Part shown: piece after piece, positions 18,166 to 58,892 of the stretch
Layout of the letters: each line of letters begins with the position of its first letter
How positions within the stretch are numbered: the first letter of the stretch is position 1
IMG/VR virus record: IMGVR_UViG_2706794662_000007
Direction: 5' to 3' (one strand)
Origin: a virus
Taxonomy: Duplodnaviria > Heunggongvirae > Uroviricota > Caudoviricetes
Length of the DNA: 64,000 bases
Made by a program: the position numbers and the translations under genes
The notes under the pieces: model-generated
The model's input: only the letters and a program-made list of their open reading frames with translations
Databases searched by the model: none
What the model was told of the DNA's origin: nothing

Positions 18166-18414
18166 NNNNNNNNNNNNNNNNNNNNNNNNNNNNNNNNNNN
18201 NNNNNNNNNNNNNNNNNNNNNNNNNNNNNNNNNNNNNNNNNNNNNNNNNNNNNNNNNNNNNNNNNNNNNNNNNNNNNNNNNNNNNNNNNNNNNNNNNNNN
18301 NNNNNNNNNNNNNNNNNNNNNNNNNNNNNNNNNNNNNNNNNNNNNNNNNNNNNNNNNNNNNNNNNNNNNNNNNNNNNNNNNNNNNNNNNNNNNNNNNNNN
18401 NNNNNNNNNNNNNN
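18166..18414. other. run of 249 N (unresolved or masked bases)
   Basis: literal n characters. Confidence 1.
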
Positions 18415-18488
18415 CCTTGAAATAAGTAGGCGCTGACATCCTGTCAGCGCCACAATGATAGTAAATTAGTACTTACTTATCCAGATAC

Positions 18489-18824
18489 TTAAGCCTCAAA
18501 TACTTGTCTGAATGTAGCAGTTAAGACACAGTACCCCTGATATCTCTTGACCGTATGACTGTCACATACAACTACAATCTGCTTGCCTCTTGGATTAACC
18601 CAATAGAACGATTCAACACCTGATCGCTCAGTAAGGAAGTCATCGATTGCATTAATTTCGTTGTATGATCTGGTAAAGGTTAACGACCATTCTTCTTTAA
18701 TACGATTAAGACCTTGAGCCTGTCGCTGCTCGTAGTCATCACCAAAATTAAGTACCGTTACATTCGGTTTTACGCTCTTTTCAGATTCGTAATCTGGATA
18801 CCAATTAAACGTTTGTCTTTCCAT
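18489..18824 (-). CDS. minor tail protein M-like
   Basis: 111 aa directly downstream of tape measure gene. Confidence 0.7.
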   Translation of the reverse strand: MERQTFNWYPDYESEKSVKPNVTVLNFGDDYEQRQAQGLNRIKEEWSLTFTRSYNEINAIDDFLTERSGVESFYWVNPRGKQIVVVCDSHTVKRYQGYCVLTATFRQVFEA

Positions 18825-18866
18825 CTCACATCCTTGTGAGACTGCCCCGACCGGGGCAGTCGATAG

Positions 18867-21800
18867 TTAGTTACGTTGAGTGTTTGGGTTGAGTGATCCG
18901 CCAGGGCGTTTCTCTTGAGCGATAGTCTCAAGCGCGATTGCTTTCATCCGTTGAGCGGCATTGTTCCATATGCTTTCTGTATCGCCGGATTCAGTTGTGC
19001 TACCGTCACTATGGACGTTGATCTCAATTGATACAGGAGAAAGAACATTTCCGCCTCCACTCATACCATCGGTACTGAGCGTTACAGGGATTGTTCGGCC
19101 ATCAGGCAATGGAACATACGCCTCATTCATAGAACCTTCCCCAAACAACGCTAATTGAGGCGAGTTAGCAATACCGCCTTTCTGGTATGCCCGGAGCGGG
19201 ATCACGCCGTCTTTTCCGAATATTCCTCCATTTGCAAACTTCGGGATTGCAGGAATGCCTTTAGTTCCGTCAGCCACACTGCTGGTTGCGGTTTTAGCAG
19301 AGCTTGATGTCAAGCTGTCGAAACCACCGCCAGCCCAAGCTGAAACAAGACCAGATGCAACCGTTGCTCCAAAACTCAACCACTTATTACCAGAGCCGGA
19401 AGCATTAGCTCCAAGCATTGCAAACGCGGCAGACAGCGCGCCGGTAACAGAGCTGAGGTTCTGCATCGAGAAGATGGAGTCCTTCACGGCTTTTGTCTCG
19501 GCATCTTTGGCTTCAGTGCTATCAAATAGCCCTGATACCCAGCTACCAATCGCATTTGTTGCAGTGCCAATTGCGCTGGTGGTCTGCTGTGTTGTTTGCC
19601 CTAATCCAGTTACCGAACTGGACGTCTCCTTCGTGGCTTCTCCTACCGACTTGTCGCCGTTAACAGTGTTGCCCATTCGTACCCCTTGATTGGCAACGGC
19701 GGAAGCAACCCCGGTCAGCAAATTACCACTCTGTGAACTACCAGCTGCGGTGGTTCCCATCCCCAACATGTTCATTAGAGGCAGCGTGATTTGCGACTTC
19801 ACGACCATATTGGTGATATCTTTCAAAATGGACTGAGATAGGCTGGAGAAACTCATCTTCCCGTTAATAACGAAATCAGTCAGGACATCAGTTAAGCCAC
19901 TAAACAAATCAGTCCAGGTGCTTTCGATCTGCTCTGCCAGGTTTTCGTATTCCAGTGCCAACTTCTGCGTCGCAGTCCCCGTCTCTTTAATAAGCGCGGT
20001 ATTGCCAGCAGCAATCAGTTGATTGATTTTCTTTGTATAAAGCGCCACAACTTTAGGATCAGACGCCTTATCACGAAGTTCTATCAACGCTTTGAGATTG
20101 CGGTTGTAGGTGTCTTCGAAATCAGCAACTTTCTCTTCACGAGACGGCGTATAGCCAGCACTAATAATGGAATCCGACTCCGGTGCCCAGGTGGAGATCA
20201 TCTGCTCAACATTGCGGCGATTAAACATCTCGCGATATTCAGGTGTCGCATTTTTGAGGTCTTCAAGACGTTTTTTCGCCTTGTCGATCATCTCTTGAGT
20301 GATGAACTCGTTAGGAACCGCATTAGCCAAATCTGTCAGCGATTTCGTTGTATCGCGAAGAGACTGATCAAACGATACCGTAGCCTTAGAGCTTTCACCC
20401 ATTTGCCCCATAAGCTGATCGGCTTTATCCAGAGCCTTCTGGTATCCGGCTGCCAGTTTCTGTTGCGCTGTCTGTTCTTTCTTGGCCGCACGCTGCGAGG
20501 CATTAGCTGATCGTTGGGCTGCTTTCTCGGCGGCTGCGGCATCCTGTTCACGAGCTTTAGTCAGTGCGGCAATGGCTGCGGCACGCTCTTCATCGCTCAT
20601 TTTCTCCAGAGAGCTGGCACTGGATGCTTTCTGCAAATTAAGCTGCGTCTTGAGTTGTTTAGGCCCAATAATCGGCTTACCTTCGAAGTCCATCATCGGA
20701 GTGCCGTCAGGCAAAGTACGTTGATAAGTCGCAGAATCCATCTGGTTTCGCATATATTGCGCCAGCGCCTTCTGAGCAGCTTTATCAGTTGTACCTAACC
20801 CAAGAACAGTCCCCTGGTTTGACATTACGCCCTTACCAGTTTTGGCCGCGTTATCTCTCTCGAACTCTGCCTGTGTCAGTTCCTGAGCAACGGCTTCCAA
20901 ATGCTCCTGATAACCACGGATACTGCCTTGCAGTTTCTGGATTTGCTCGGTATTTCCATCCTTTTTGGCTTTTTCAAGCTGATCATTAAGAGTCGCTATT
21001 TGCTTCTCGGTAGCATTCTTACGAGAAGAAAATGAATCAACCAGTTTTTGCGCAGGCTCCAGATAGCTTTTGTTTACCGTTTCACGTAACGGTGCCAATA
21101 GCTTGTTCTTTTCGTCATCTGAAAGTGAACCGTCATCATTGATTTTCTGGATCTTATCCAGAGCCTCCTGCCGGGCTTTCACGAATGTTGCCGCGAAAAT
21201 CTGGTTTTCCGCTCGAATTTTCTCAATCTGAGATTCGGCAGCCTCTTTAGCCAAACGCTTTGCTACAGCGCCGTCACCAAGAGCTATCGTGCCGGTTATC
21301 TTTTGATACTCTTCCTGATTTTTTTTCAGGCGTGCTTCGATGTCAGCCTTCGACTCTTTGTGAGTAATAACACCGGCAGAGTTAGATACGTAATTAACAC
21401 CCTCACCAGTTTTTAATGCTCGTTGATCAGCAAGAATCTGCTTTTCGAGCTTTTCTGCGCGGTCGGCCATTTGTGCACGTTTGGCCGCCGTCATCGCCTC
21501 TGGTATTTTCCTAATCTCGTCAACGACCTTTGAAGTTTCGCTGCGGAGCATGGTCATGTACGTGATTAGGCCAGCAACAGCTACAGTGGCAACTGTAAAT
21601 GCTGCCCCTATAGGATTTGCTGCAATGAACGCCGTTAATCCAGCAAAAGCGCCTTTAAGCCCCGTAATCGCCCCACGGATGGCGAAAATAAGAGAGGGGA
21701 TCGGAGCCAGCCCCATACGTGCCGCACGATTGAATCGAGTTACTGCTGTAGCGCCGAGGTTAAATGGAGTCTGTATGGCGGTCGCCATCGTGGCAAAGGT

Positions 21801-23444: not shown

Positions 23445-23817
23445 ATATTTGCATCAGTTGCTCTTTGGCGTCAGGGTCTGCCCTATCCTGGCTTGGATCG
23501 TAGACTTTATCTGTTACGACTGGTCTTCCAATCCTGAGTTGCAAACCCTCCATGAACGCCTTCACGCCCTCGCCATCTGCCTGAGCAGCGCGAGCGACTT
23601 GCAGGTTGCGGACATCCTCTTCCGCACGTAGACGGTCGATGTTGCGACTGAGCATCCAGAACATCGTGAGAGGGATGTTCAGTAGTTCTAACGGCGACAC
23701 GGCGTAGTGAGCAACTATACGACTGAAATAGAATCCGAGATCTATTGAGACGGTCCTTGTCCCGGATTCATCGCGGGAAATTACTTTGCCCCTTCGCCAG
23801 CCGCTTTTTCGTTTTCT
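23431..23817 (-). CDS. tail assembly chaperone -1 frame extension (gpT-like)
   Basis: -1 frame open from 23817 across stop of 23781..24098; no canonical slippery heptamer identified. Confidence 0.3.
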   Translation of the reverse strand, partial: RKRKSGWRRGKVISRDESGTRTVSIDLGFYFSRIVAHYAVSPLELLNIPLTMFWMLSRNIDRLRAEEDVRNLQVARAAQADGEGVKAFMEGLQLRIGRPVVTDKVYDPSQDRADPDAKEQLMQIFGRG

Positions 23818-24098: not shown

Positions 24099-24165
24099 TT
24101 GTTAAAATCCTTTTAAAAGAGAGGCCCATCATGAGCCTCAATTTATAGATTAATAAGTTGCTTGA

Positions 24166-38473: not shown

Positions 38474-38654
38474 TATTGGATTCTTAGTCAATTTCAGAAT
38501 TGCCAGACTTGAAGAGCTAATAGACAGAGTGCGGCAACAACGCCTTTGCCGCACAGCTTTTAGAGAAAACACGTCTGCTATTTACAGTTGAAAACTTATC
38601 GTTTGAGACTATTGGATATTTATAATTCTACTTTGCAATAATCGCTGTATAAAA

Positions 38655-39248
38655 ATGAAACGTTCGTTACTTCTTGCTTGTATATACCTCTCGTCATTTT
38701 CCGCCAATGCGTTGTCAGATATCGTCTCCGACATGCAAAAAACGTACAGCATGTATACTTCTGAAGACGTACTAAAATACGAATCACGAGGTCTGATTCA
38801 ACCAGTCTGGTTCAGATTCTCAGATAACGCAGAAGAAACAATACTTAATGCAGGAAAAGAAAGATTACGGTTGCAAATTAACGGAACCGCTGTACCAGAA
38901 AACGTTAATGTAAGCTCTGACGAAGCCATGAAGCCATCTGGAATTGTTTTGGAAGTTCAAGACGGCACACTTTACTGTGATGAAATGGCTACAACAGGTT
39001 GCCAAGTAAACATTAGGGTTGGCAATGAAGAGCCTATCGTTACTTACGCCAAGGCTGAAGGGAATACAAGTGGAAAGGTATTGTTTATCGATGAAAATAC
39101 CTCAAAACGTATCGTTCGTGACATACAGAAAACAGCGAACTCTAAATCCGTCGATAAAAAAATCTATGTTGAGGTTCCCTTCTTTGTCGTTGGTAACAAA
39201 GAATTTAAATTTGGGTTGCTGAAAACACCTCTAAGAGTATCAGAATGA
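38655..39248 (+). CDS. secreted/periplasmic protein with signal peptide
   Basis: N-terminus MKRSLLLACIYLSSFSANA with AxA cleavage site. Confidence 0.5.
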   Translation: MKRSLLLACIYLSSFSANALSDIVSDMQKTYSMYTSEDVLKYESRGLIQPVWFRFSDNAEETILNAGKERLRLQINGTAVPENVNVSSDEAMKPSGIVLEVQDGTLYCDEMATTGCQVNIRVGNEEPIVTYAKAEGNTSGKVLFIDENTSKRIVRDIQKTANSKSVDKKIYVEVPFFVVGNKEFKFGLLKTPLRVSE

Positions 39249-39766
39249 GAACATTGGACATCACCTACGGCATACCGGCTGAAGTATGGCCGCGAGACTA
39301 CGAACATGCTGAACGTACCTTGCTCTTCTGGCGGAGTGCAAAATTTCCTGTAAGAGTCACTCTCGAAGACGGCCAAGTGTTTTGCATGTATGTCTACGGG
39401 CTATTGAGCGCAAGAAATAAGCTGAACCTCACACCAGATCCGCTTAGCAACACAAATCGTATAAGGCTCCCTCTTGAGCGCATTAGCACAATTGAGTCGG
39501 GCATAGAAGAGGTTGACACTTCATTCACAGGTCGACTAACGCTAAACAATGAACAGATGGTTAATCAGCCATCACGTCGTGACTTTTTTAAGATATGTCG
39601 TCAGGCTTACCAAAACGGCAAATCTATAAGGGTCTACATGGCAGACGGTCGCGAAATTGAGGGAACGTCAGATGGCGTTGACGCCTGTCTAGTCACACTT
39701 AAGTTGGAAGACGGTAGAAAAATACTTATTTTCTTCGATTGGGTTGAACGAATCCTTCCGTTTTAA
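39245..39766 (+). CDS. hypothetical protein, 173 aa
   Basis: ATGA overlap with preceding secreted-protein gene. Confidence 0.45.
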   Translation: MRTLDITYGIPAEVWPRDYEHAERTLLFWRSAKFPVRVTLEDGQVFCMYVYGLLSARNKLNLTPDPLSNTNRIRLPLERISTIESGIEEVDTSFTGRLTLNNEQMVNQPSRRDFFKICRQAYQNGKSIRVYMADGREIEGTSDGVDACLVTLKLEDGRKILIFFDWVERILPF

Positions 39767-39959
39767 TTTCTATAAGGGTAATAACCGGCTAAGTCCGGTT
39801 ATTATTTTACATGCCATTCATTTTATACTCTTTCAATTCTACCCCGTATAAATATATAAGGTCTAAAGCCGGAATCGATTATTTATTTAGGGAACACCCT
39901 CGACGATCTAACATTTATTTCTAGGACTTTCATCCCTGCAAAAAAACTTAAAAAAACAC

Positions 39960-39988
39960 TTGCAATCTTTTTTCGCGTATCGATAATT
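39960..39988 (+). promoter_or_regulatory. sigma70-like promoter (TTGCAA, 17-bp spacer, ATAATT)
   Basis: hexamers read directly; ~75 nt upstream of 40064 gene. Confidence 0.45.
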
Positions 39989-40063
39989 GAACGCATCAGG
40001 AACGAGTGCAAAACACTTTCTTTCTTGAGTTAAATTTTAATATTTATACTAAGGAATAAAATC

Positions 40064-40714
40064 ATGGCTAACATTATCATTTCTAAAAAGTCCATCATTG
40101 AAGCTGCATCTATTGTATCCGACGAACTGCGCGAAAAAGCAGATCTGGCAACTCAAACATATAACGAACATTATAAAAATGGTACGCACACTAAAGCAGA
40201 CAAAGCAAATATGCAAGCTGCGACCACTAAACTTGCTTACTTCATCAACAACGTCGTAAACGCTGTAGAAGACGAAAAATTATGCTCTGTTTTCTACTAT
40301 GCGATTAAAGCAAGCAAACAAGCGCCAGAAGTATTTTTTCGTGACGCTATGACTAATAGTTATTCACTGGAAAAACTGGTTTATCTGGTTAAATCAATTA
40401 AAGCTGGAAAATGTGTTTATTCCGTCGCTGATATGTCTGGATCTCGTGTATTCGCTTTAATCGATATGATTAACGACGAGATCGACACGTTCACGAATGG
40501 CGCTGTTTTCGATTTAATGAATGAAGCCAAAAAAGCGTGTGAAATTAAATTGGACGCTGGCTATACTCAAGCTAACCAGCTAATCAATCTTTGCGAACGT
40601 CTCGGACTTGTTGAGAAAGTCAAAGGAATGGGAAGCGCCAAAGCTGGTACACAGCAATATCGCTTTATCAAGAATGATTTCTACAATTATCTAGCTGACG
40701 CTTTCAAAGCGTAA
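40064..40714 (+). CDS. hypothetical protein, 216 aa, AT-rich cargo gene
   Basis: ORF track; own promoter and downstream hairpin. Confidence 0.5.
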   Translation: MANIIISKKSIIEAASIVSDELREKADLATQTYNEHYKNGTHTKADKANMQAATTKLAYFINNVVNAVEDEKLCSVFYYAIKASKQAPEVFFRDAMTNSYSLEKLVYLVKSIKAGKCVYSVADMSGSRVFALIDMINDEIDTFTNGAVFDLMNEAKKACEIKLDAGYTQANQLINLCERLGLVEKVKGMGSAKAGTQQYRFIKNDFYNYLADAFKA

Positions 40715-40763
40715 TTAATGGAATCAAGCGCCCACTATGGGCGCTTTAAAGGAGCTTTAAAAA

Positions 40764-40967
40764 ATGGTCAGCTATGACAAGATCCGCGCGGAATATCGCG
40801 CAAAGTATCGCGCTTATAAACTAGAATTAATCAATGATTTAATCGCGCAACGCGACCAATTAAATTTTACGTTTTCTGATTTGCTTAACAGCAAACGAGA
40901 TTGCAAGCGTAAACGTGAATACTTACGTTTAAGCGCATTAATCGGAAAACTTCATAATTCTATTTAA
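40764..40967 (+). CDS. small hypothetical protein, 67 aa
   Basis: ORF with SD AAAGGAG upstream. Confidence 0.35.
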   Translation: MVSYDKIRAEYRAKYRAYKLELINDLIAQRDQLNFTFSDLLNSKRDCKRKREYLRLSALIGKLHNSI

Positions 40968-40987
40968 TTTTTTTAAGGAGCTTAATC

Positions 40988-41215
40988 ATGGTTATTTTCA
41001 TCTCTGGCGTAAATATCAATAATCATACTCTTGTTTATGATATTGCTGGTTTAGCTGGATATGCTCTAAGTTCTGAAGTGGTTGATGAAACAACGTTTAA
41101 AATAAACATCAATGACGTAGAACATAGAGCGCGCGCAGGAATCAATGAAGCAGATGTTACTTTAATGCTTCAAGAATTTTTAAACGCTGGTTTTAATATT
41201 CGCTTAGAAAAATAA
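40988..41215 (+). CDS. small hypothetical protein, 75 aa
   Basis: ORF with SD TAAGGAG upstream. Confidence 0.35.
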   Translation: MVIFISGVNINNHTLVYDIAGLAGYALSSEVVDETTFKININDVEHRARAGINEADVTLMLQEFLNAGFNIRLEK

Positions 41216-41223
41216 AAACAATA

Positions 41224-41246
41224 GCGCCCATAGTGGGCGCTTTTTT
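41224..41246 (+). terminator. rho-independent terminator
   Basis: GCGCCCA-TAG-TGGGCGC hairpin followed by TTTTTT. Confidence 0.65.
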
Positions 41247-41268
41247 CGTTTCCAATACTCCCACCATA

Positions 41269-41293
41269 ACGCGCCAATGATGGCGCGTTTTTT
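41269..41293 (+). terminator. second tandem terminator-like hairpin
   Basis: CGCGCCAATGATGGCGCG followed by TTTTTT. Confidence 0.55.
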
Positions 41294-41579
41294 ATTGTCT
41301 TTGACTCACTCCAACAACATAAAAATAAGCGCCAAAATAACGCCATAGACGCGCTTTTATATCCTTGCCAGTACATACCCATTACTTAACACATTAACGC
41401 GCTTAAAACGCGTTATATTGCGCTATAGCGCATAGTTAATCATTGGCTTTTAGTCTTGCTATGTGATCCGCGTTTATTTGTCGGCGCGGATCGGCATTTT
41501 GTTTTGTTCCGTATCCGCTCGCGTATTATGTGCGCGTGATTTTTCACATAATCACACCACTTAATCACGTATGCGATTA

Positions 41580-41843
41580 NNNNNNNNNNNNNNNNNNNNN
41601 NNNNNNNNNNNNNNNNNNNNNNNNNNNNNNNNNNNNNNNNNNNNNNNNNNNNNNNNNNNNNNNNNNNNNNNNNNNNNNNNNNNNNNNNNNNNNNNNNNNN
41701 NNNNNNNNNNNNNNNNNNNNNNNNNNNNNNNNNNNNNNNNNNNNNNNNNNNNNNNNNNNNNNNNNNNNNNNNNNNNNNNNNNNNNNNNNNNNNNNNNNNN
41801 NNNNNNNNNNNNNNNNNNNNNNNNNNNNNNNNNNNNNNNNNNN
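41580..41843. other. run of 264 N
   Basis: literal n characters. Confidence 1.
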
Positions 41844-42324
41844 ACACGCCATCAAGGATGTGGATGCGGTTGCTTGCGTATACATTCAGCATAAAGTTAG
41901 CGCAAAACAGTTTCCATGTATCAACGCCAGCGGTATACGTAATGTTTTTGCATTTAATTGCATTGTTGGCGATCCGCATCCCCTGCGATACTGCTTCATC
42001 GTCGGAAAATTTGAACGACGATTGAGTTTTAATCCAGACAGAAATCTGCGTAGCGAACTCAATCAGCTTGGACTGGCAGAATCGCCCGGAGCGCACCGGA
42101 AAGACGAACGTTCCGAATCCAGAATTTACCACATACGCTTTCTCAAATACCCGCGAGTAACGACGATTGCCAATGATGTCGCGTGCAATAATGCATTTTT
42201 CTTGTGCTGACAGTTCTACCGTCTCATTGTCGCGCCATGCACCAAGTACTCGTTTTTCAATGTCAGAGAACGTTACAGCGATATTGCCATGTGCGGGTGC
42301 GTTTACAGTAGCGATAAAATTCAT
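41844..42324 (-). CDS. hypothetical protein (N-terminal 160 aa visible, 3' part masked)
   Basis: ORF from ATG 42324 into N-run; family-1 motif 20 nt upstream. Confidence 0.45.
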
Positions 42325-47095: not shown

Positions 47096-49034
47096 TTACT
47101 TAACCTGGTGGCCAGGTTTAGCACCAGCATCCGGGCTTAACAGGAAGATATCTTTCCCGCCAGGACCGGCAGCCATCACCATGCCTTCAGAGATACCGAA
47201 GCGCATTTTACGTGGTGCCAGGTTAGCCACCATAATGGTGTGACGACCAATCAGTGCCTGTGGATCTGGATAAGCGGAACGGATGCCTGAGAAGACATTA
47301 CGCTTTTCACCACCGAGATCCAGCGTCAGGCGAAGCAGTTTGTCAGAACCTTCGACAAACTCCGCGTTTTCAATCAGCGCCACACGCAGGTCAACTTTGG
47401 CGAAGTCGTCAAAGGTGATGGTTTCCTGAATCGGTTCGTCAGCCAGTGGGCCAGTTACCGGTGCAGCTGTGGCTTTCACTTCTTCTTTGGATGCTTCCAC
47501 CAGTGCTTCCACCTGTTTCATATCGATACGGTTATACAGTGCCTTGAACGGATTCACTTTATGGCCCAGAAGCGGTTGCTGGATACCATCCCAGGTCAGT
47601 TCTGTATTCAGGAATGCTTCTGCACGTTCAGTCAGTTTCGGCAGTACCGGTTTCAGGTACGTCATCAGCACGCGGAACAGGTTAATGCCCATAGAGCAAA
47701 TCGCCTGCAGATCTGCATCGCGACCTTCCTGCTTCGCCACCACCCACGGAGCCTGTTCATCGACATAGCGATTAGCCAGGTCAGCCAATGCCATGATTTC
47801 ACGGATAGCTTTACCAAATTCGCGGCTTTCCCATGCTTCGCCAATCACTTCAGCGGCATCAGTAAAGGTTTTGTACAGTTGCGGGTCAGCCAGTTCGCTT
47901 GTCAGCACGCCGTCAAAACGCTTGTTGATAAAGCCTGCATTACGGGAGGCCAGGTTAACCACTTTGTTCACGATATCGGCATTCACGCGCTGAACGAAAT
48001 CTTCCAGGTTGAGATCGATATCATCAATGCGCGAAGAGAGTTTCGCAGTGTAGTAGTAACGCAGGCTGTCAGCGTCAAAATGATTCAGCCAGGTGCTGGC
48101 TTTAATAAAGGTGCCGCGAGACTTGGACATCTTCGCGCCGTTCACCGTCACATAGCCGTGAACAAACAGGTTGGTCGGCTTGCGGAAGTTGCTGCCTTCC
48201 AGCATGGCAGGCCAGAACAGACTGTGGAAGTAAACGATATCTTTGCCGATGAAGTGGTACAGCTCGGCGGTGGAGTCTTTCTTCCAGTATTCGTCGAAGC
48301 TTACGCTGTCGCCGCGCTTGTCGCACAGATTCTTGAAAGAACCCATGTAGCCAATCGGCGCGTCCAGCCAGACGTAGAAATATTTGCCCGGCGCGTTCGN
48401 NNNNNNNNNNNNNNNNNNNNNNNNNNNNNNNNNNNNNNNNNNNNNNNNNNNNNNNNNNNNNNNNNNNNNNNNNNNNNNNNNNNNNNNNNNNNNNNNNNNN
48501 NNNNNNNNNNNNNNNNNNNNNNNNNNNNNNNNNNNNNNNNNNNNNNNNNNNNNNNNNNNNNNNNNNNNNNNNNNNNNNNNNNNNNNNNNNNNNNNNNNNN
48601 NNNNNNNNNNNNNNNNNNNNNNNNNNNNNNNNNNNNNNNNNNNNNNNNNNNNNNNNNNNNNNNNNNNNNNNNNNNNNNNNNNNNNNNNNNNNNNNNNNNN
48701 NNNNNNNNNNNNNNNNNNNNNNNNNNNNCTCTTCGCTGTGCGTCGAGTGATAGTTGTCATAGCTGATGTTAAAGCCTGCGAAATCAGTCTGATGTTCCTG
48801 ACTCATTTCGCCAATCATCTGTTCCGGTGTGATACCAAGCTGCTGTGCTTTCAGCATGATTGGCGTACCGTGGGCATCGTCGGCACAGATGAAATTAACC
48901 TCGTGGCCGCGCATTCGCTGGTAACGAACCCAGACATCAGCCTGGATGTGCTCCAGCATATGGCCGAGGTGGATTGAGCCGTTAGCGTACGGCAGCGCGC
49001 ACGTCACCAGAATTTTCTTCGCGACTTGGGTCAT
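47096..49034 (-). CDS. metG: methionine--tRNA ligase (interrupted by N-run; frame differs on the two sides of the mask)
   Basis: N-terminus [29 protein letters not shown] and C-terminus ...[24 protein letters not shown] recognised as enterobacterial MetRS. Confidence 0.9.
48390..48728. other. run of 339 N inside metG
   Basis: literal n characters. Confidence 1.
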
Positions 49035-49191
49035 AGTAGGCATTACTTCTTTGTAGTGAAAAGGGGCTTGATAGTAACAAAATGGCCTTATGTCTGCCAT
49101 GTGATAACAGCATTTCTCATAAATGATTAAATGTCGTAGCTGGAGTACACTACAAGGCGACAATTGCGCAAATTAAAATAAAGGAGACGGG

Positions 49192-50292
49192 ATGAGCGAG
49201 TCCAAATCGCCGGATGCCCTGAGAGCAATGGTAGCCGGTACGCTGGCTAATTTTCAGCACCCAACCCTGAAACACAACTTGACTACGCTTAAAGCGTTAC
49301 ACCATGTTGCGTTGATGGATGACACACTGCATGTCGAACTAATCATGCCTTTCGTGTGGAATAAGCCTTTTGAAGACCTGAAAGAGCAATGTAGTGGTGA
49401 TCTGCTCCGTATCACTGGCGCAAAGGCTATTGACTGGAAGCTGTCGTACAACATTGCCACGCTTAAGCGCGTCAAAAACCAACCAGGCATTAATGGCGTT
49501 AAGAACATTATCGCCGTCAGCTCAGGCAAGGGCGGCGTGGGTAAATCCTCCACAGCAGTAAACTTGGCACTGGCTTTGGCTGCTGAAGGTGCGAAAGTTG
49601 GTATTTTGGATGCCGATATCTATGGTCCATCAATTCCAACCATGCTGGGCGCGGAAAACCAACGTCCAACCTCACCGGACGGTACTCACATGGCACCTAT
49701 CATGTCTCATGGCCTGGCAACCAACTCTATTGGTTATCTGGTCACCGATGACAATGCAATGGTGTGGCGTGGACCGATGGCGAGCAAGGCGCTGATGCAG
49801 ATGTTGCAGGAAACACTGTGGCCTGATCTGGACTATCTCGTTCTCGATATGCCACCGGGCACTGGTGATATTCAATTGACGCTGGCGCAGAACATTCCTG
49901 TAACTGGTGCGGTTGTGGTAACTACGCCGCAAGACATCGCGCTGATCGATGCGAAGAAAGGCATTGTGATGTTCGAAAAAGTCGAAGTGCCGGTACTGGG
50001 TATCGTTGAAAACATGAGTGTGCATATTTGCAGTAACTGCGGTCATCACGAGCCAATTTTTGGCACCGGTGGAGCACAGAAACTGGCCGAGAAATACAAC
50101 ACGCAGTTGTTAGGCCAAATGCCACTTCATATCTCTCTTCGTGAAGATCTGGATAACGGAACACCAACCGTTATTAGTCGTCCAGATAGCGAATTTACGG
50201 CTATTTATCGTGACCTCGCAGATCGCGTTGCTGCCCAAATGTATTGGCAAGGTGAAGTAATACCTGGCGAAATCGCATTCCGCGCAGTGTGA
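49192..50292 (+). CDS. apbC: iron-sulfur cluster carrier protein ApbC/Mrp
   Basis: 366 aa, Walker A SGKGGVGKS, CxxC near C-terminus; divergent from metG as in enterobacterial chromosomes. Confidence 0.9.
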   Translation: MSESKSPDALRAMVAGTLANFQHPTLKHNLTTLKALHHVALMDDTLHVELIMPFVWNKPFEDLKEQCSGDLLRITGAKAIDWKLSYNIATLKRVKNQPGINGVKNIIAVSSGKGGVGKSSTAVNLALALAAEGAKVGILDADIYGPSIPTMLGAENQRPTSPDGTHMAPIMSHGLATNSIGYLVTDDNAMVWRGPMASKALMQMLQETLWPDLDYLVLDMPPGTGDIQLTLAQNIPVTGAVVVTTPQDIALIDAKKGIVMFEKVEVPVLGIVENMSVHICSNCGHHEPIFGTGGAQKLAEKYNTQLLGQMPLHISLREDLDNGTPTVISRPDSEFTAIYRDLADRVAAQMYWQGEVIPGEIAFRAV

Positions 50293-50298
50293 TAAAAA

Positions 50299-50317
50299 GG
50301 CGGTGCATTGCACCGCC
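50299..50317. terminator. hairpin GGCGGTGCATTGCACCGCC; U-tract only on minus strand
   Basis: read directly; lies between apbC stop and UmuD'-like gene stop. Confidence 0.45.
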
Positions 50318-50329
50318 TAATCAGTTCTC

Positions 50330-50719
50330 CTACATCACAGGACAATCATCAAACTCGCCACTTCTTGCGTCGTTGATAATGTGAGTGATCACACCAAACA
50401 CGGCATTGCTGCCCGTGCATCCATCGTCATCCTTTGGCAATGCTTCCTTCTTACCGGTTCTTAAATCCTCCAGATGCTGACGTGGAGACTTCCGGTATCT
50501 TTTTACGCGATATTCCCCATCCAGAGCGCATACAAGCAGAGAACCATCAACCGGGGTAAGTGAGGAATCAACCACCAGCAATGCACCCTGTAATATTCCC
50601 TCACGATGATGACTATCAGCTGCTCTCATGAAGTAGGTCGCTGAAGGATGTCTAATTATCTGCTGATCAAGAGAAATACGGCTCTCAGCATAATCCGCCG
50701 CAGGAGAAGGGAAGCCCAT
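50330..50719 (-). CDS. UmuD'-like S24 peptidase-fold protein (starts at the position equivalent to the UmuD self-cleavage site)
   Basis: MGFPSPAADY...HPSATYF matches UmuD from Gly25 onward; Ser and Lys of dyad retained (AADS, RVKR). Confidence 0.75.
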   Translation of the reverse strand: MGFPSPAADYAESRISLDQQIIRHPSATYFMRAADSHHREGILQGALLVVDSSLTPVDGSLLVCALDGEYRVKRYRKSPRQHLEDLRTGKKEALPKDDDGCTGSNAVFGVITHIINDARSGEFDDCPVM

Positions 50720-50735
50720 AGCGTTTTGCCCTCAA

Positions 50736-50755
50736 TACTGTTCATTTACACAGTA
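50736..50755. promoter_or_regulatory. LexA (SOS) box TACTGTTCATTTACACAGTA
   Basis: perfect CTGT-N8-ACAG core 17-36 nt upstream of UmuD'-like start; in-frame TGA upstream excludes longer ORF. Confidence 0.7.
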
Positions 50756-50831
50756 TACATGAAAGAAGCTCACTCAGTGCAACTGATCGGTACATAGCAC
50801 CAGACAAAGGAACGTTATTTTCTCGAACAAG

Positions 50832-50854
50832 AAAAGGTAGAAAACAAATTGTTT
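50832..50854. repeat. 23-bp element AAAAGGTAGAAAACAAATTGTTT, right copy of direct repeat, followed by hairpin 50855-50875
   Basis: identical to 46989-47011. Confidence 0.8.
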
Positions 50855-50904
50855 AAGGCCACAACTAGTGGCCTTAATGGAGAAGGGATGCTTATTGGCT
50901 ATGG

Positions 50905-51423
50905 CTAAAAATCAAANNNNNNNNNNNNNNNNNNNNNNNNNNNNNNNNNNNNNNNNNNNNNNNNNNNNNNNNNNNNNNNNNNNNNNNNNNNNNNNNNNNN
51001 NNNNNNNNNNNNNNNNNNNNNNNNNNNNNNNNNNNNNNNNNNNNNNNNNNNNNNNNNNNNNNNNNNNNNNNNNNNNNNNNNNNNNNNNNNNNNNNNNNNN
51101 NNNNNNNNNNNNNNNNNNNNNNNNNNNNNNNNNNNNNNNNNNNNNNNNNNNNNNNNNNNNNNNNNNNNNTTTAAAGGAAGATAGGTTCCCCATAGTAGCT
51201 GTCTGCCGTGCGCTCGTGTGAAATACCGGGCCATCTTCGGATTGCTATGCTGCTTAGGAGCGCCTGGTCTGTATGTCTGATACCCGGCCAACATCCCATC
51301 AAACCTGTATAGAGGGAATGTAACAACTCCTTCGCTTTCATCGATCCACTGTCTATATGGATGCACATCATAGCGGTAGTTACGAGTTAGCAAATGAGCT
51401 TCCAGCTTTCCAAATTTAGTCAT
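50905..51423 (-). CDS. hypothetical protein interrupted by N-run
   Basis: N-terminal part MTKFGKLEAHLLTRNYRYDVHPYRQWIDESEG... visible; start at internal Met. Confidence 0.4.
   Translation of the reverse strand: MTKFGKLEAHLLTRNYRYDVHPYRQWIDESEGVVTFPLYRFDGMLAGYQTYRPGAPKQHSNPKMARYFTRAHGRQLLWGTYLPLXXXXXXXXXXXXXXXXXXXXXXXXXXXXXXXXXXXXXXXXXXXXXXXXXXXXXXXXXXXXXXXXXXXXXXXXXXXXXXXXXXXXXFDF
50917..51169. other. run of 253 N
   Basis: literal n characters. Confidence 1.
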
Positions 51424-51436
51424 AACTTCGCATCCC

Positions 51437-52291
51437 TCATAACACTTCCCATTTATCACCATATTTCTCCATAGCTCTTAGCCAATAAACATGGCCACTA
51501 GGCATAGTGATGTGAGGCTCGCCAAACTCTTCTCCATGTACATCAAAGATGTCCCCAACAGAAAATTGGGGGATTTCTGTTCCGTTTTCACCTATATGTG
51601 TAATTCGTATACGTTTCGGTTGGGATTGTCCACCTTTGAGCGAGTTGTTCACTGCTCTGGCAATTTTCTCCCGCAATTGCTGCGTTCCGTGATACGTAAC
51701 CGCAATATCCCGCAACTCATTCACTAGTTCTCGAATTTGGTGATCTTTAAGCTCATTATTTGGGTGATTGGTAACAACTCTGGTTAATTCCCCATTGTCT
51801 TTTGCTCTTACGTATGCAGCTCTTGTGCATTCGCCCCATGTATTACCGCCTACATTAACTTCGTAGATTAGGCTGGACTTATCTGTCAATTCGGAACAAA
51901 TACGGGCCGTGGTCTGGCAACTAGAGCATTCGCAGTTATCGCGGAAACCGTGGTCTACTGGCTTCGGTTTAACATCATCAACTTTTTCTACCCTATTGGA
52001 ATTTAAATACTTCGAAGCCTTGCTATGCCAATCGCTGGTTTTAGGATCTTGTCCATCCATCAAACGCCAGGCTTCAGCTATTAACTCATAACTAGTGACT
52101 GTAGCTTCCTGCGCATCACCAATAAGTCGTGTAATCTCTCTTTCAAGCCGACCGCCTAACTCCGTTTTAGTGCAATGTTCTGACCAATCGCCAGTCTCAA
52201 GAAGCGCGAGAATGCTTAAAATATCGTCCAATAGAACGGTAGTATTATCGACTTCCTTCTGAAACTCACCGGCTACTGATTTATGCATCAT
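51437..52291 (-). CDS. hypothetical protein, 284 aa (Cys cluster CECSSC)
   Basis: ORF track. Confidence 0.5.
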   Translation of the reverse strand: MMHKSVAGEFQKEVDNTTVLLDDILSILALLETGDWSEHCTKTELGGRLEREITRLIGDAQEATVTSYELIAEAWRLMDGQDPKTSDWHSKASKYLNSNRVEKVDDVKPKPVDHGFRDNCECSSCQTTARICSELTDKSSLIYEVNVGGNTWGECTRAAYVRAKDNGELTRVVTNHPNNELKDHQIRELVNELRDIAVTYHGTQQLREKIARAVNNSLKGGQSQPKRIRITHIGENGTEIPQFSVGDIFDVHGEEFGEPHITMPSGHVYWLRAMEKYGDKWEVL

Positions 52292-52569
52292 TCGTCATCC
52301 TCATCCGAGTCATCCTCATCACAGGATGAGAGTAGTGGGTTAGTCATTCGCCCTACTTGAGTGGCGTAGCAACGCCGACAGAGATTGCGCAGCACACTGT
52401 ATATTTCGAACATCTCGGTTCGTTCATCGCCAACATCAAGCTCAGATGCTATAGCGTGGCATTCAGTCGCGAGAGCCGATATTTTCTGAAATAACTCTGC
52501 TTTATTCACTCTTCGACTCCTGCGGAGGTTCTGGTAGCGGCATCCAGTGAGTTGCTTGCTCAATACCAT
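52288..52569 (-). CDS. small hypothetical protein with acidic C-terminus (start uncertain)
   Basis: ORF track; 5' part overlaps upstream gene so true start likely internal. Confidence 0.3.
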   Translation of the reverse strand: MVLSKQLTGCRYQNLRRSRRVNKAELFQKISALATECHAIASELDVGDERTEMFEIYSVLRNLCRRCYATQVGRMTNPLLSSCDEDDSDEDDE

Positions 52570-53119
52570 TACCCGGCTTAATCGTTACATCTCCGCGCCG
52601 AAAGGTGATTCCGGTATAGCGTGCGGAGCATATTAGCGGTTCAACCAGAGAGCTATCGAAATTCACCGAAATAAGCACGTTCTGGCCCTTTTCAGGCATT
52701 CGCTCACTACAGCTTATCCAACCATCCGGAGTTACCGGATGGGGTCCAGCGAACTCGGGAATGTCAGGACCTTTTCTGATAGCTTTAGCCAGATCCAGCG
52801 GGTCATCGTAAAGCCAGTCGCCAGTTTGTGGGTGATTTGCTTCTGCAAGCTGCGCAGCCCATTCAAGACCATCTTTTTGACCTTGGAGATAATCAAGCGG
52901 CAACTCTTCATGATTACTTGCAGGTTCTGCACTATCAGCTTCGCGCCGCTTCTGTAGCTCTGCTGCCATCGCTCTCACGACTTCAACTGGTGCCCTTGCA
53001 GCAAACTCTATGTTGGTGATCAGCTCATTAAGATATTGCTCGCCTGGATACTGTTTCTTATCGGTTATAGTGGTCATATCACTCTCCTTTTCCCTGAAGC
53101 ATAGCAGCGCGGCAGGCAT
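52502..53119 (-). CDS. DUF551-like prophage protein
   Basis: C-terminal ATHWMPLPEPP signature segment. Confidence 0.5.
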   Translation of the reverse strand: MPAALLCFREKESDMTTITDKKQYPGEQYLNELITNIEFAARAPVEVVRAMAAELQKRREADSAEPASNHEELPLDYLQGQKDGLEWAAQLAEANHPQTGDWLYDDPLDLAKAIRKGPDIPEFAGPHPVTPDGWISCSERMPEKGQNVLISVNFDSSLVEPLICSARYTGITFRRGDVTIKPGNGIEQATHWMPLPEPPQESKSE

Positions 53120-53465
53120 TCCAGCCTCTCACCTCTGCAATAGCGGCAACAGCATCAACCGCGTACATGCTAAGAGGATTAGGCATTGGTTTTTCTTCCG
53201 GTACTACTGGAACGGGTGGAGCGGCGTAGACCTCAATAATTCCATTATCAATAGGCCATTCTCCATCCTTGAGGTAGTCACTTGTGCCGTCAACTTGCTG
53301 TTCTGCAATGTGGAATGCACCTATTGGTTTTGCTTCCAGCGATGCCAGAGCAATTCGTGCCAGTTCTTCCGCTTCTTCTGCTGGCAGTACAACGTTGCTA
53401 CCAGGTCCGTATGTTTCGCGCCACTGTTTGATTGTCAGTAGTCGCTCTTTGGTAATAGTGGTCAT
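53079..53465 (-). CDS. Ea22-like early-region protein candidate
   Basis: 128 aa, N-terminus MTTITKERLL shared with neighbouring ORFs. Confidence 0.4.
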   Translation of the reverse strand: MTTITKERLLTIKQWRETYGPGSNVVLPAEEAEELARIALASLEAKPIGAFHIAEQQVDGTSDYLKDGEWPIDNGIIEVYAAPPVPVVPEEKPMPNPLSMYAVDAVAAIAEVRGWNACRAAMLQGKGE

Positions 53466-53489
53466 GTGTTACTCCTTAACCCGCAGTGC

Positions 53490-53739
53490 NNNNNNNNNNN
53501 NNNNNNNNNNNNNNNNNNNNNNNNNNNNNNNNNNNNNNNNNNNNNNNNNNNNNNNNNNNNNNNNNNNNNNNNNNNNNNNNNNNNNNNNNNNNNNNNNNNN
53601 NNNNNNNNNNNNNNNNNNNNNNNNNNNNNNNNNNNNNNNNNNNNNNNNNNNNNNNNNNNNNNNNNNNNNNNNNNNNNNNNNNNNNNNNNNNNNNNNNNNN
53701 NNNNNNNNNNNNNNNNNNNNNNNNNNNNNNNNNNNNNNN
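53490..53739. other. run of 250 N
   Basis: literal n characters. Confidence 1.
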
Positions 53740-53749
53740 AGTTGCCATA

Positions 53750-54271
53750 TCACTCTCCTTTGATGCGAATGCCTGCTGCAATGCTGTTTATGATGCTGTC
53801 AGTGCATGGAGTAGAAAGCTGGGCATCTCCAGCAATTTTCATGACCTCAACATCCGCATATCGAATACCGAGGTGTATCAGACCGGCTATACCTGACTTA
53901 AGTCGAACATTTTCCATAAACAGATCTTTTTCCCGCTGTTTAGCGGCTTCCAACTCCATCGACAATTTTTCCAACTGCTCTTTATGCTTCTTGTATTCCT
54001 GATACGCGTGCCAAGACTGACCTTTGCGCACACTATCAGTGATATCAGCAACCTGCTCCGGTGTTAGCGTGGTCAGTGGCTGTGCTGGAAAAATCATCAC
54101 TTTCCCGGCATCCCAATCAAAACCCGCCTGAATTGACTGAACCTCAACTGATGGTGTTGAACCGATGCGACCAGGCGAATGAACAACGATCGTTACATCC
54201 ATATCGCGACGATGGCTGTGGTTGTTGGACAAAATACGATTCACCAACTCAGAAAATTTGGAAAATTTCAT
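53750..54271 (-). CDS. Ea22-like protein (start at MKFSKF)
   Basis: C-terminus AAGIRIKGE identical to 54593..55123 product. Confidence 0.45.
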
Positions 54272-54591
54272 GCTGATCCCTCTTTCTCTCCCCGGATAAT
54301 TCTGTTGCACACATCCACACACTCGTCGCAGATGAAAACGGCGTCCCCAGCAATTAACTTTTTGACGGCGTACTGGGATTTGTTGCAGAAGCTGCAACAA
54401 AGTGTTCGCCTGACTGATAAGGATGGAGCGCCAGATGTCAGCCGCTCCATATCGTTCTTGCGACGCAATATCACACGGCTGAACTCAACCAGTTTCTCCG
54501 GGGATATCTCCTCCTCCGTAGCAAGCGCCTCTAATCGTTCGAGTATGTGGAAGGCTTTTTTCTGGGTAATTGCAGAATGCGATGTGGTCAT
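54268..54591 (-). CDS. ClpX-type C4 zinc-finger protein (domain-only)
   Basis: [34 protein letters not shown] parallels the ClpX N-terminal zinc-binding domain. Confidence 0.55.
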
Positions 54592-54592
54592 C

Positions 54593-55123
54593 TCACTCTC
54601 CTTTGATGCGAATGCCAGCGGCGCGGGAATCATTCCATCGCTTTACTTCTTCACGAATTACGTCAATGCATTCTTTCGAATCCATTAGGTAATCTTCATC
54701 AAAAAGACGTTCCTGTTCGTTTTCTATCGCAACAATGATTGCTTCAACTAACTTTTGTGCCTGAGAATCACTTTCTAACTCTGCTATGCGCTTACTTCCA
54801 TCCGAGATAACGCCCTCGTAATACTCACGCTGCTCGTTGAGTTTTGATTTTGCCAACTCCAGTTGTTTTGTTAGTTCCGCAATACGGCAAACATCGTTGA
54901 TACGCGTTTCCTCTAATGCGTTGATCTCATCCAGTAGTGCCAGCACGGTTTCTGGTCCGGCCAGAAATTTGAAGGCGTTGAGGGCATCAATATCAACACC
55001 GCTATCTTTAAGTTCCTGTTCACTTAACAAGTCATCATCAGCTGGCAACATTAACAGGCGTTCCATTGCTGGAATTGCACGTTCCGCCACCTCACGCAGT
55101 GCCTGGTAATTAATTTCGCTCAC
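54593..55123 (-). CDS. Ea22-like coiled-coil protein
   Basis: 176 aa; C-terminus AAGIRIKGE; stop-start junction duplicated at 53745. Confidence 0.45.
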
Positions 55124-55364
55124 TGGCTGCCTCCTGCTTTTCTGCCTTCAACACCATGCGAGAACCATCATCCAGCTCCCACACTATCTCACCACCTTCA
55201 GCCATGACCAGTTGCCACACCAATTGAGCAGCCTCATTGGTAACATCACGACCTGGATCATTGCCAACGCGCATACGTCCACCTTCAACATCGCGCATTT
55301 TTGCCAGCATGATAGTTTTTGATAGCGGTGAAAAACCAAGCTGTAGTCGTGCTGAATTACTCAC
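55110..55364 (-). CDS. small hypothetical protein, 84 aa
   Basis: ORF track. Confidence 0.4.
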   Translation of the reverse strand: MSNSARLQLGFSPLSKTIMLAKMRDVEGGRMRVGNDPGRDVTNEAAQLVWQLVMAEGGEIVWELDDGSRMVLKAEKQEAASERN

Positions 55365-55903
55365 TGGTTGCCTCCTTTGCGAAGCTGGGCAGCAAAGTCA
55401 ACTAACCACTCAGTCATTTCAACCTTCCCTACCAGGTCTGAACCAGGGTGCATACAGCAATCACTCTGCGCCGCTTTGAAATCCTTATACTCATATTCTT
55501 GGGCCACCAGATTTTTTGCAGCTTCTATAGCAGCATCCACCCCCTGCGCACGTACTTCAGCCAGAAAAGCATCGGTGGCTGGAGTCTCCGTTAATTCGCT
55601 AACCCAATTATCTCCGTGTTCCTCGGCACACATCGCATCGAATGCTCGCTCAGATTCTTTCAGGGCTGCATTCTCCGCCGCTAATGCGTCTCTCTGCGCC
55701 CGCAACTTCTCAATTTCGGCAGCCATGTAGTAACCAACCATAGCGAAGACGGCAAAAGAGTTGTCTGCCTCATCAGGCGACACTGAGGCCATTAGCAGAC
55801 CATCGTAATAATCGTGACTCCCATTGGTGATCGCCACCTCATAGGAGTCGTGGTTCTCACGCTTGTGAATGAGAACTACGGGGTTTTCGATTTTGTTACT
55901 CAT
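55361..55903 (-). CDS. Ea22-like protein, 180 aa
   Basis: ORF track; coiled-coil centre. Confidence 0.45.
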   Translation of the reverse strand: MSNKIENPVVLIHKRENHDSYEVAITNGSHDYYDGLLMASVSPDEADNSFAVFAMVGYYMAAEIEKLRAQRDALAAENAALKESERAFDAMCAEEHGDNWVSELTETPATDAFLAEVRAQGVDAAIEAAKNLVAQEYEYKDFKAAQSDCCMHPGSDLVGKVEMTEWLVDFAAQLRKGGNQ

Positions 55904-56041
55904 GTGTTTTTCTCTTCTTTGCTGTTACATAAGCACTACCAAGTGCTGGTTTATTTTCACAAATAAGAAAATGTAGAAAACAATTTATTTAAGGCCACAA
56001 CTTATGGCCTTTATTTATTCATGCCGAAGGATTTGTAGCGT

Positions 56042-56422
56042 CTAATTGCCGTATAAAATGGGGTGAGGTGCTTGCCAGTAGGCTCCACCGGTCCATGTGA
56101 ACCCCATGCGAATAAGAGTGTTTATTGCGGCTTTGGTAGACTCCGATTCGACACTGGCTTTACGAAACTCTTGAACCTCTTTCGCCAACCTGTATGTAAT
56201 TGTGCAGGGGACGATTGCAGCCCAGCCTTTCTCATGACTGTTAATGACCATCTGGATGTGACCATCCAGAATAGGTTGATTAGACATGTTATTGAAAATG
56301 TCTGCCTGTTTTTGAATGTGAAGAAAAAGCCTTGCCAGCTCCATTTGCTCACTACGAGACAAGGGATTATCAAGAGGGCTTTTTGCAAAAGCGGCTATAC
56401 GCTGTGCGTCAATGCCAAACAT
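56042..56422 (-). CDS. hypothetical protein, 126 aa
   Basis: ORF track. Confidence 0.45.
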   Translation of the reverse strand: MFGIDAQRIAAFAKSPLDNPLSRSEQMELARLFLHIQKQADIFNNMSNQPILDGHIQMVINSHEKGWAAIVPCTITYRLAKEVQEFRKASVESESTKAAINTLIRMGFTWTGGAYWQAPHPILYGN

Positions 56423-57126
56423 CAGCGCACCTCACCATCTTTATGGCTGGAGTTAACTTCCGCCATTAAATGTCTGACGTAATCGACAAGAGAGCCACCT
56501 GGTGGAATCTGGCATTCCTCAACTAACTGGAAGTAGATATCCGCAGCATTACGTGTATTGCTACCCGCGCATATTCTTTCTTCCCGAAGTGCATGAAGCT
56601 CGTTGATCAAACGGTCACACTCTCCGTTACGCTGATCCACAACAGCCTCAAGTTCTGCGACGCGTTCACCTGGCGTCTTACCTTCTTCGCGTTGGATGGT
56701 AACGACGAAATCGCCAATTGCAGGGACGTTGTAATCCAGCTCAAGGTAGTTTTTGGCACCGCTGCGGACGAACTCACCCGCGAACATGGTGGCGAACATC
56801 TCAGAGGCCATTGTGCTGTTGAAAAGTGACTCCAGATCTAACGGAGTCCCGGCAGCCAGAGCCTCTTTTGCTGTATCCATTGTATCCATGAACCGATCAA
56901 ACTCATTAGCGCGCTTTTCCAGGTCTTTCCATTGCTCGCTCCAACGTTTGGCAATGAAGTCTATGAATGTTTTCGCGGATTCATCAAAATCCCCCTCAAA
57001 CTTAACGATGCCTTTATCAATAATGATCTGGCCTACCGCATCCTCTGCATAACCTTTCAATGTAAACTTGAAAGGAAAATCAGAATGGCCTGTGACGTTA
57101 AAATGCTCTAACTGGAGGTTGTTCAT
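56422..57126 (-). CDS. hypothetical coiled-coil protein, 234 aa
   Basis: ORF track. Confidence 0.45.
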   Translation of the reverse strand: MNNLQLEHFNVTGHSDFPFKFTLKGYAEDAVGQIIIDKGIVKFEGDFDESAKTFIDFIAKRWSEQWKDLEKRANEFDRFMDTMDTAKEALAAGTPLDLESLFNSTMASEMFATMFAGEFVRSGAKNYLELDYNVPAIGDFVVTIQREEGKTPGERVAELEAVVDQRNGECDRLINELHALREERICAGSNTRNAADIYFQLVEECQIPPGGSLVDYVRHLMAEVNSSHKDGEVR

Positions 57127-57187
57127 ATGTTTTTCTCTTATCGTTTAGTTATTACATTCTTACACAAATTAAGTAAGTATTTACCTA

Positions 57188-58892
57188 TCATTTAACGCGT
57201 TTGAAAACGTATACGCTGACTGTGATCCCTGTGTCTTCAAACTCGTTGGTAAACGACTTCCCTCTGGCATAAACGTAATTATCCATCGTCATCCAGTCCA
57301 GTATTGGCGCNNNNNNNNNNNNNNNNNNNNNNNNNNNNNNNNNNNNNNNNNNNNNNNNNNNNNNNNNNNNNNNNNNNNNNNNNNNNNNNNNNNNNNNNNN
57401 NNNNNNNNNNNNNNNNNNNNNNNNNNNNNNNNNNNNNNNNNNNNNNNNNNNNNNNNNNNNNNNNNNNNNNNNNNNNNNNNNNNNNNNNNNNNNNNNNNNN
57501 NNNNNNNNNNNNNNNNNNNNNNNNNNNNNNNNNNNNNNNNNNNNNNNNNNNNNNNNNNNNNNNNNCCAGATCGGCGTTAATATAGGCCAGAAGATCCCCA
57601 CGTCCGGCTTGAGGCTCCAACAGCTTCTCACCAGGCTTCAATTCAGTGGCTCTGGCAACGTACTCAGCAATCAAGCGTGGGGTAGGGTAGAACTGGTGTG
57701 ATTTTGTATCCGGTATTAAACCGGTAGCCACAATCGTATTTAGCGTATGGCCGATCTCATACGGGAACTGCCAGTGCTTTTTCTCCTGCACGCCGCCAAT
57801 GAAGCTCAGTGTGCGCTCAAGCTCTTCCACCTGCGACTTCTGGAGAGCTGAATCAGAGAAGTACCATACGCCTTTGTCTTTGCTCAATCGCCCGTCACGA
57901 AGCGCAGTGCGAACCGGCACGGAGATCGTCTTCTGGATTAACCCGAACTGCTTTGGTGCCCGTGTTTTTGGCGCAGTTCGGCATGGCGCGGGGATTGCAG
58001 CAGGCATACTGTAAGCCAGCACCTCATTCAACTTCCAGGCCACGTCAGGATGTATTTCAAAGTGAACGTTGCCGTTCTTGAACATCTTCACGCGCATCAG
58101 ATTTCCATCGACGTTCATCCAGTCACCGGTCTGGCAGTCGTTTGCCCGATACGCAGCTGATAGCACCTCAGCAGTGCGGTTGATGGTAATAAATTCTTTG
58201 TGCGCGAAGAAATGAAGCAAGACACGCAGATCGTCGATGTAGTCCTCTTTGCGATAGTTCACGCTAACGCTGTCACGCCAGAAATCAGAAATGCAGTCAG
58301 CGATTATCAGACGCTCGCTGAAACCGTTTGTCTTATTTGTCTTGTGCGCAGGACTCAGCGCCTTAAACAAGCCATACACGCGCTCAGAGAGATATTTGTG
58401 CCTGTCATTCAGCAAATTAAGCATCGTTGGTATGACCGTTTCTGCTTTGAACTCCGGTACACCAACGAACTCTTTAACCTTCATCTGATAGCCGGTTCTG
58501 TCAGTTTTGATGACTTCCTGCTTGCCCTCGATAAATAGCTCACGCCACTCGTCGCGACGGGAAGCTGGCATGATCAGCAGAACGTTAGTCATATCCGTAA
58601 CCTTCCTCCAGTACTCGGCCCAAATATTCTGTTTCACCCATTCCAGATCGACGTTATCCAGCCAGACTCGATTCAAACGTGAGCGATCTTCATCTGGTCG
58701 GTGGTTTAGTCGAAGCAGGCGATTAATCATGTTGTGGCGTTCATCGCCATAAACGAAGTCGTGTACCTGATACATGAAGGAGATCTCTTTCTCGCACTCG
58801 GCCACAATTTCGTGGATGACGTTCATTTCCTGTCGATAGTCGATAGCAGTGTTTGAGCTGGCATCGCCCATGATGGAAAGGGCTGTATTCAT
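57188..58892 (-). CDS. gamma-class N6-adenine DNA methyltransferase-like protein with ~390-aa N-terminal extension (interrupted by N-run; C-terminal frame uncertain)
   Basis: motif X-like QFYPTPR and motif I-like LEPQAGRGDL just before mask. Confidence 0.5.
57311..57565. other. run of 255 N
   Basis: literal n characters. Confidence 1.

Follow-up and report, generated by a model that had tools for sequence, protein, structure and literature searches.

SSU5-supergroup phage-plasmids have been found in 18% of surveyed Shigella sonnei genomes (10.1101/2025.09.12.675607). Plasmid p09EL50 of Escherichia coli O104:H4 2009EL-2050 (NC_018651.1) has been grouped with pECOH89, pHCM2 and the phage SSU5 (PMC3999498). 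The DNA analysed here, a single stretch of 64,000 nucleotides that we call the window, has the gene content of this supergroup and is collinear with p09EL50, with no notable differences. It is interrupted by runs of N that fall largely within genes and across which reading frames and coordinates jump. We conclude that these N-runs are placeholders, an artefact without biological meaning, whether they were introduced by masking after the fact or are gaps carried over from a scaffolded draft. Features of the runs, the genes that they touch and the evidence on their origin are set out in the following sections.

Identity of the window

The non-N bases of the window match positions 28347-92388 of LR213459.1, which is plasmid 2 (108,101 bp) of Shigella sonnei AUSMDU00008333, at 62,399 of 62,399 positions, with no mismatches and no gaps. 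The alignment consists of seven blocks, each of which stops exactly at the edge of an N-run. A sister record, NZ_CP045933.1, from which the gene annotation was taken, differs from the window by four mismatches and ten gap positions, and the best matches in the plasmid collection are S. sonnei plasmids. The window is also collinear over nearly its full length with p09EL50, at 90-99.98% identity.

In BLAST searches of complete E. coli genomes, the tail region, the surroundings of run 2, the metG-apbC pair and the segment that had been called a prophage block all led to plasmids of ~105-115 kb. No chromosomal match was found in these genomes for the tail region or for the run 2 region. Genes annotated within the window include those for tape measure, tail L, head, portal, terminase and ParB-like proteins, and the gene for the RepB initiator sits outside it. 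Membership of the SSU5 supergroup is marked by collinearity with its members, by a phage structural module combined with plasmid maintenance genes and by an extrachromosomal replicon of ~100-110 kb, and we observe all of these features. Judged by its sequence, the window is assigned to a ~108-kb SSU5-supergroup phage-plasmid with its own metG and apbC, and a chromosome with a prophage is excluded. The preliminary description of this DNA had named metG and a prophage block; this is no chromosomal context, and the whole window is one SSU5-like phage-plasmid. A search of the species-representative genome collection with a 284-aa protein encoded at 51437..52291 yielded no relative.

Positions and lengths of the N-runs

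Ambiguous bases occur in the window as six N-runs and nowhere else (Table 1). This is the number that the preliminary description had given, although its figures need slight correction: it placed the start of the first run at 18166 and the lengths at 249-339 N, whereas we measure 18165 and 250-329. Hidden lengths were taken from LR213459.1, which is free of N in the stretch used.

Table 1. N-runs and affected genes in window coordinates, with the unmasked counterpart of each
Feature	Coordinates	Strand	Length in window	Unmasked counterpart	Length difference or remark
Run 1	18165..18414		250 N	240 nt (LR213459.1 46511-46750)	+10
Run 2	41580..41843		264 N	256 nt (LR213459.1 69916-70171)	+8
Run 3	48400..48728		329 N	424 nt (LR213459.1 76728-77151)	-95
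Run 4	50917..51169		253 N	246 nt (LR213459.1 79340-79585)	+7
Run 5	53490..53739		250 N	241 nt (LR213459.1 81906-82146)	+9
Run 6	57311..57565		255 N	236 nt (LR213459.1 85718-85953)	+19
Minor tail protein L gene, visible 3' part	17698..18164	-		232 aa	Pfam Phage_tail_L
Hypothetical gene	visible 41844..42324; true extent 41842..42324	-		160 aa	only two stop-codon bases missing
Plasmid-borne metG	47096..49034	-	1,939 positions	677 aa, 2,034 nt	
Toprim-domain protein gene	50892..51423	-		174 aa	
Hypothetical ORF, nearly all hidden	53476..53748	-		87 aa	module common to chromosomal lambdoid prophages
DUF4942-domain, methyltransferase-like gene	57188..58892	-		561 aa	

A length-preserving hard mask writes one N for each base that it replaces, and none of the six runs has this property. 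The earlier suspicion that at least two runs do not preserve length is thus borne out in a stronger form. The reading phase changes at five of the six runs and is kept only at run 5, where the difference is a multiple of three. Relative to LR213459.1 the cumulative offset after runs 1 to 6 is +10, +18, -77, -70, -61 and -42, and as a net result 64,042 bases of the record correspond to 64,000 window positions. The caution that coordinates downstream of the runs are not directly comparable with a reference was therefore justified, and the ~100 nt thought to be missing from metG amount to 95 nt.

The same hidden lengths recur in relatives, where they were measured as the distance between both exact 22-nt flanks in the fetched loci. 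All lengths in p09EL50 equal those in LR213459.1, and the 240 nt of run 1 are also present in NZ_CP045933.1. Other fetched loci with both flanks gave 240 nt at run 1 (2 loci), 256 nt at run 2 (5), 424 nt at run 3 (28), 246 nt at run 4 (19), 241 nt at run 5 (58, plus one of 242 nt) and 236 nt at run 6 (17). The length of the N-run itself was seen between the flanks in none of the fetched loci, and no N-run of at least 20 occurs in them. We also tried to derive N-run length from hidden length by a floor at 250, a fixed pad or a fixed ratio, and rejected these formulas since none fits all six runs.

If the masks were taken to preserve length after all, the source would have to differ truly from all of its relatives beneath them, by indels, pseudogenes or a foreign insert. 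On that reading, six independent indels, of which five would break the frame, would all have to fall within the masked intervals and nowhere else, in a molecule whose 62,399 flanking bases are without difference from LR213459.1 and whose relatives all have invariant lengths at the six sites. We regard it as extremely improbable. Equally, there is next to no likelihood that the hidden bases are truly different in the sense of engineered or variant segments, or of frame-breaking indels in metG and in the tail L, toprim and methyltransferase-like genes. Were such differences real, what lies under the Ns would be something biological instead of ordinary sequence. As we read the data, ordinary and intact sequence identical to LR213459.1 would lie beneath all six runs, and each run would stand for 236-424 nt, its own length of 250-329 N being an approximation.

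Genes beneath the runs

In the unmasked records, as in many drafts, the genes under the runs are full-length and in frame. Frames and coordinates jump at the runs because the length of each run is only approximate, and the genes beneath are whole. In-frame continuity together with equal length in unmasked sequence had been named in advance as the observation that would speak against the preliminary description; the genes do prove to be in frame, but equal length is found at none of the six runs.

The statement that six N-runs interrupt genes holds for five of them, while run 2 is essentially intergenic. Run 1 covers codons 1-78 of the tail L gene, with its ATG and 8 nt upstream. The sequence 'MSAPTYFK', on the right-hand side of run 1, was considered as the start and rejected, the true start being inside the hidden stretch. 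Run 2 contains two bases of the stop codon of the 160-aa gene, and the rest is intergenic except for a small ORF of 50 aa that is annotated only in a twin record of the plasmid. On the strand of the 160-aa gene, the sequence hidden here has a GC-rich hairpin with T-rich sequence behind it, an arrangement that reads as terminator-like. The 'unknown gene' reported at run 2 was an ORF of 294 aa (41440..42324) that arises by reading through N, and the real gene is the one of 160 aa. This ORF is one of eight such read-through products in the mechanical ORF list, the others being 17698..18453, 47096..48760, 48102..49163, 50905..51462, 53476..53781, 57188..57631 and 57279..58892.

Translation of the flanks shows that the open frame of metG changes from phase 2 on the right-hand side of run 3 to phase 1 on the left-hand side. 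The same discontinuity is seen in the methyltransferase-like gene, with phase 2 on one side of run 6 and phase 1 on the other. Both frame breaks had been recognised before, as had the likelihood that important motifs are hidden, and we can now name these motifs. Run 3 covers MetG residues 103-243, including the zinc-knuckle cysteines CPKC...CEVC. Judging from the visible translation and from E. coli MetRS numbering, the class I signature motifs of MetG, HLGH and KMSKS, are outside run 3 and readable. Run 4 covers codons 85-167 of the toprim gene, with the IGDNDAAGE motif, and run 5 covers codons 4-84 of the 87-aa ORF. Codons 443-521 of the DUF4942 protein, including NPPY, are covered by run 6, and the AdoMet-type motif LEPQAGRGDL just upstream is visible.

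Repeats and insertion sequences

The preliminary description had asked whether the masked segments correspond to repeats or insertion sequences. They are mostly unique, and none is an insertion sequence. The hidden stretches have ordinary G+C, contain no transposase or annotated insertion sequence, do not repeat within the plasmid and show no likeness to one another. Among 5,426 complete E. coli genomes, stretches 1, 2, 4 and 6 have zero chromosomal copies and occur, with a median of one place per genome, exclusively on plasmids. Second copies exist only for stretch 5, as part of the prophage module, and for stretch 3, in the metG paralogue. No Rfam family was found in the whole unmasked 67 kb.

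It is these two stretches that lend some appeal to the idea of hard-masked repeats. Stretch 5 is within the module shared with chromosomal lambdoid prophages, and 979 E. coli genomes have it on the chromosome, at 1,106 places in all. A 39-mer adjoining run 5 matched more than 120 unrelated lambdoid prophage contigs in IMG/VR, in which the distance of 241 nt could again be read. However, the sequence on either side of run 5 is shared no less widely than the stretch beneath it, so that the run delimits no repeat unit. Stretch 3 is the part of the plasmid metG nearest to the chromosomal metG, with 98.3-98.6% identity compared with ~94% for the rest of the gene and an uninterrupted identical stretch of up to 344 nt. 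The zone of high identity nevertheless extends over ~900 nt, and a random stretch of 424 nt falls inside it ~30% of the time. In addition, repeat masking would keep the length. We reject the repeat or insertion-sequence idea for stretches 1, 2, 4 and 6 and find it unconvincing for stretches 3 and 5; as an account of the runs it is very unlikely.

Origin of the N-runs

Two origins of the Ns deserve weight. In the one that we prefer, the Ns would have been placed by a data preparer over sequence that was already finished, with a length decoupled from that of the bases replaced, and would not stem from the assembly. In the other, they would be native gaps in a paired-read draft of the same S. sonnei clone, with the N-runs as estimated gap sizes.

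The runs resemble hard-masking in that short stretches of finished sequence are replaced by N. They differ from it in that length is altered at all six sites and in that the content is not made up of repeats, insertion sequences, vector or an Rfam family. Scaffold gaps of estimated size offer a likeness of another kind, namely N in otherwise perfect sequence, approximate lengths, and shifted frames and coordinates. They would be expected where assembly is difficult, whereas the stretches here have ordinary G+C, are mostly unique, all measure at least 236 nt and are unbroken in other drafts, and a record free of N is identical to the window over all visible bases.

The lengths are a point in favour of scaffold gaps. 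Each N-run approximates the true length with an error, coming near to it and never equalling it, and the excess of +7 to +19 at five of the six sites gives way to a large deficit at the longest. The ranks agree at the top, the longest N-run standing for the longest hidden stretch and the second for the second. Gap estimates limited by insert size typically shrink towards a common value and underestimate long gaps, which the pattern seen here resembles. It is moreover usual for the N-runs of scaffolds to change length, and uncommon for those of masks. Masking is correspondingly disfavoured because a deliberate mask is normally made base for base, while here the length is always altered, and because the N-run lengths loosely track the hidden lengths in the manner of a measurement of scaffold gap size.

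Other evidence points towards masking. It is favoured because a finished record without N is identical over all visible bases and because all relatives show the same hidden lengths without N-runs. Further support comes from the fact that other drafts are unbroken in this region and that the hidden stretches are mostly unique, four of the six being single-copy in the E. coli genomes surveyed. The flanks contain no errors, up to the very edges of the runs. The set of hidden lengths, which includes no short ones, would also be unlike random coverage gaps. Finally, according to the documentation of the genome collection, a small number of stretches in it are masked and appear as N-runs, which we count on the side of masking.

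We also looked for a copy of the window that bears the Ns. No copy of the exact 50-mer abutting run 3 is followed by N in the viral, genome or metagenome collections, a further point for masking and against native gaps. The only matches to this 50-mer in the genome collection are two contigs, a distant one of Salmonella and one of E. coli, both without N, and the relatives in IMG/VR and in the metagenomes all have 424 nt and no N. In NCBI drafts, as read in 24 of ~2,480 index blocks, the part of the plasmid with runs 3-6 is found on contigs of 61-110 kb and its genes are full-length; the index holds 1,595 blocks whose longest contig with the gene is 50-200 kb. A scaffolded draft with these gaps was found neither in the three collections nor in the NCBI draft contigs read, which are part of the index, and a gapped public draft may therefore exist among the remaining blocks.

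On balance we rank masking after the fact above native scaffold gaps. Masking over intact, mostly single-copy phage-plasmid sequence is the best explanation of the runs and a moderately probable one. Native gaps in a draft of the same clone are a serious possibility, to which we give a lower probability.

Implications

The finding is a matter of data handling and reveals no biological feature. ORF calls, frame analysis and coordinate comparison across the runs are unreliable, and the hidden sequence can be recovered from LR213459.1. The apparent frameshifts in metG and in the methyltransferase-like gene must not be counted as pseudogenisation, and the window should be treated as phage-plasmid DNA and not as a chromosome that contains a prophage.

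Comparison with p09EL50

Alignment of the window with p09EL50 (NC_018651.1), the collinear plasmid of E. coli O104:H4 2009EL-2050, leaves two stretches, 2230-3467 and 4604-6026, without a counterpart in the reference. The first holds a 357-residue open reading frame, and at the place matching the second p09EL50 carries a DUF1778/GNAT toxin-antitoxin pair, in place of which two hypothetical genes are present on the S. sonnei plasmid. Off-diagonal BLAST hits in the comparison of the window with p09EL50 also reveal diverged repeats at 8529-9715, inside the tail fibre gene, which are 69-78% identical over 160-300 nucleotides.

Features of the phage-plasmid (window coordinates)
Feature	Coordinates	Strand	Remark
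357-aa ORF	2335..3408		within a stretch absent from p09EL50
Hypothetical gene, S. sonnei plasmid	4659..5435		at place of DUF1778/GNAT pair
Hypothetical gene, S. sonnei plasmid	5436..5834		at place of DUF1778/GNAT pair
Tail fibre gene	8138..11509	minus	
metG and apbC	47096-50292		both full-length; own copies of the phage-plasmid
Accessory block	50300-59000		toprim, DUF551, Ead/Ea22, ClpX zinc-finger, DUF4942

To the left of run 2, the N-run at 41580-41843, the window departs furthest from p09EL50: over 38648-41579 the identity is 89.8%, with 38 gap positions. The 256 nucleotides hidden by the run are 100% identical to the O104:H4 plasmids and are found at 99% identity or more in only two E. coli records, which marks a mosaic boundary of the phage-plasmid near run 2. 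Segments of the accessory block are common to chromosomal prophages in 3,429 of the 5,426 complete E. coli genomes searched, and the region matching this block is the insertion site of ISEcp1-blaCTX-M-15 in related plasmids.

Relationship of plasmid and chromosomal metG

The plasmid metG is approximately 94-95% identical overall to chromosomal E. coli metG. However, its central portion of approximately 900 nucleotides is closer to the chromosome (96-100% identity) and includes an exact shared stretch of up to 344 nucleotides. This mosaic pattern of identity suggests recombination with a host copy.

Some large contigs of 370-570 kb (L141, L144 and L150) carry a plasmid-type metG-apbC-S24 peptidase segment at positions of about 7500-11600, which is 96-97% identical to the plasmid and approximately 92% identical to E. 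coli chromosomal metG. There the segment adjoins chromosomal DUF4132 neighbours, followed by phage-plasmid-like genes. The locus could be the donor of the plasmid genes, or could reflect integration via metG-apbC homology. In L142, L146 and L147 the plasmid segment lies within contigs of 2.7-5.6 Mb.
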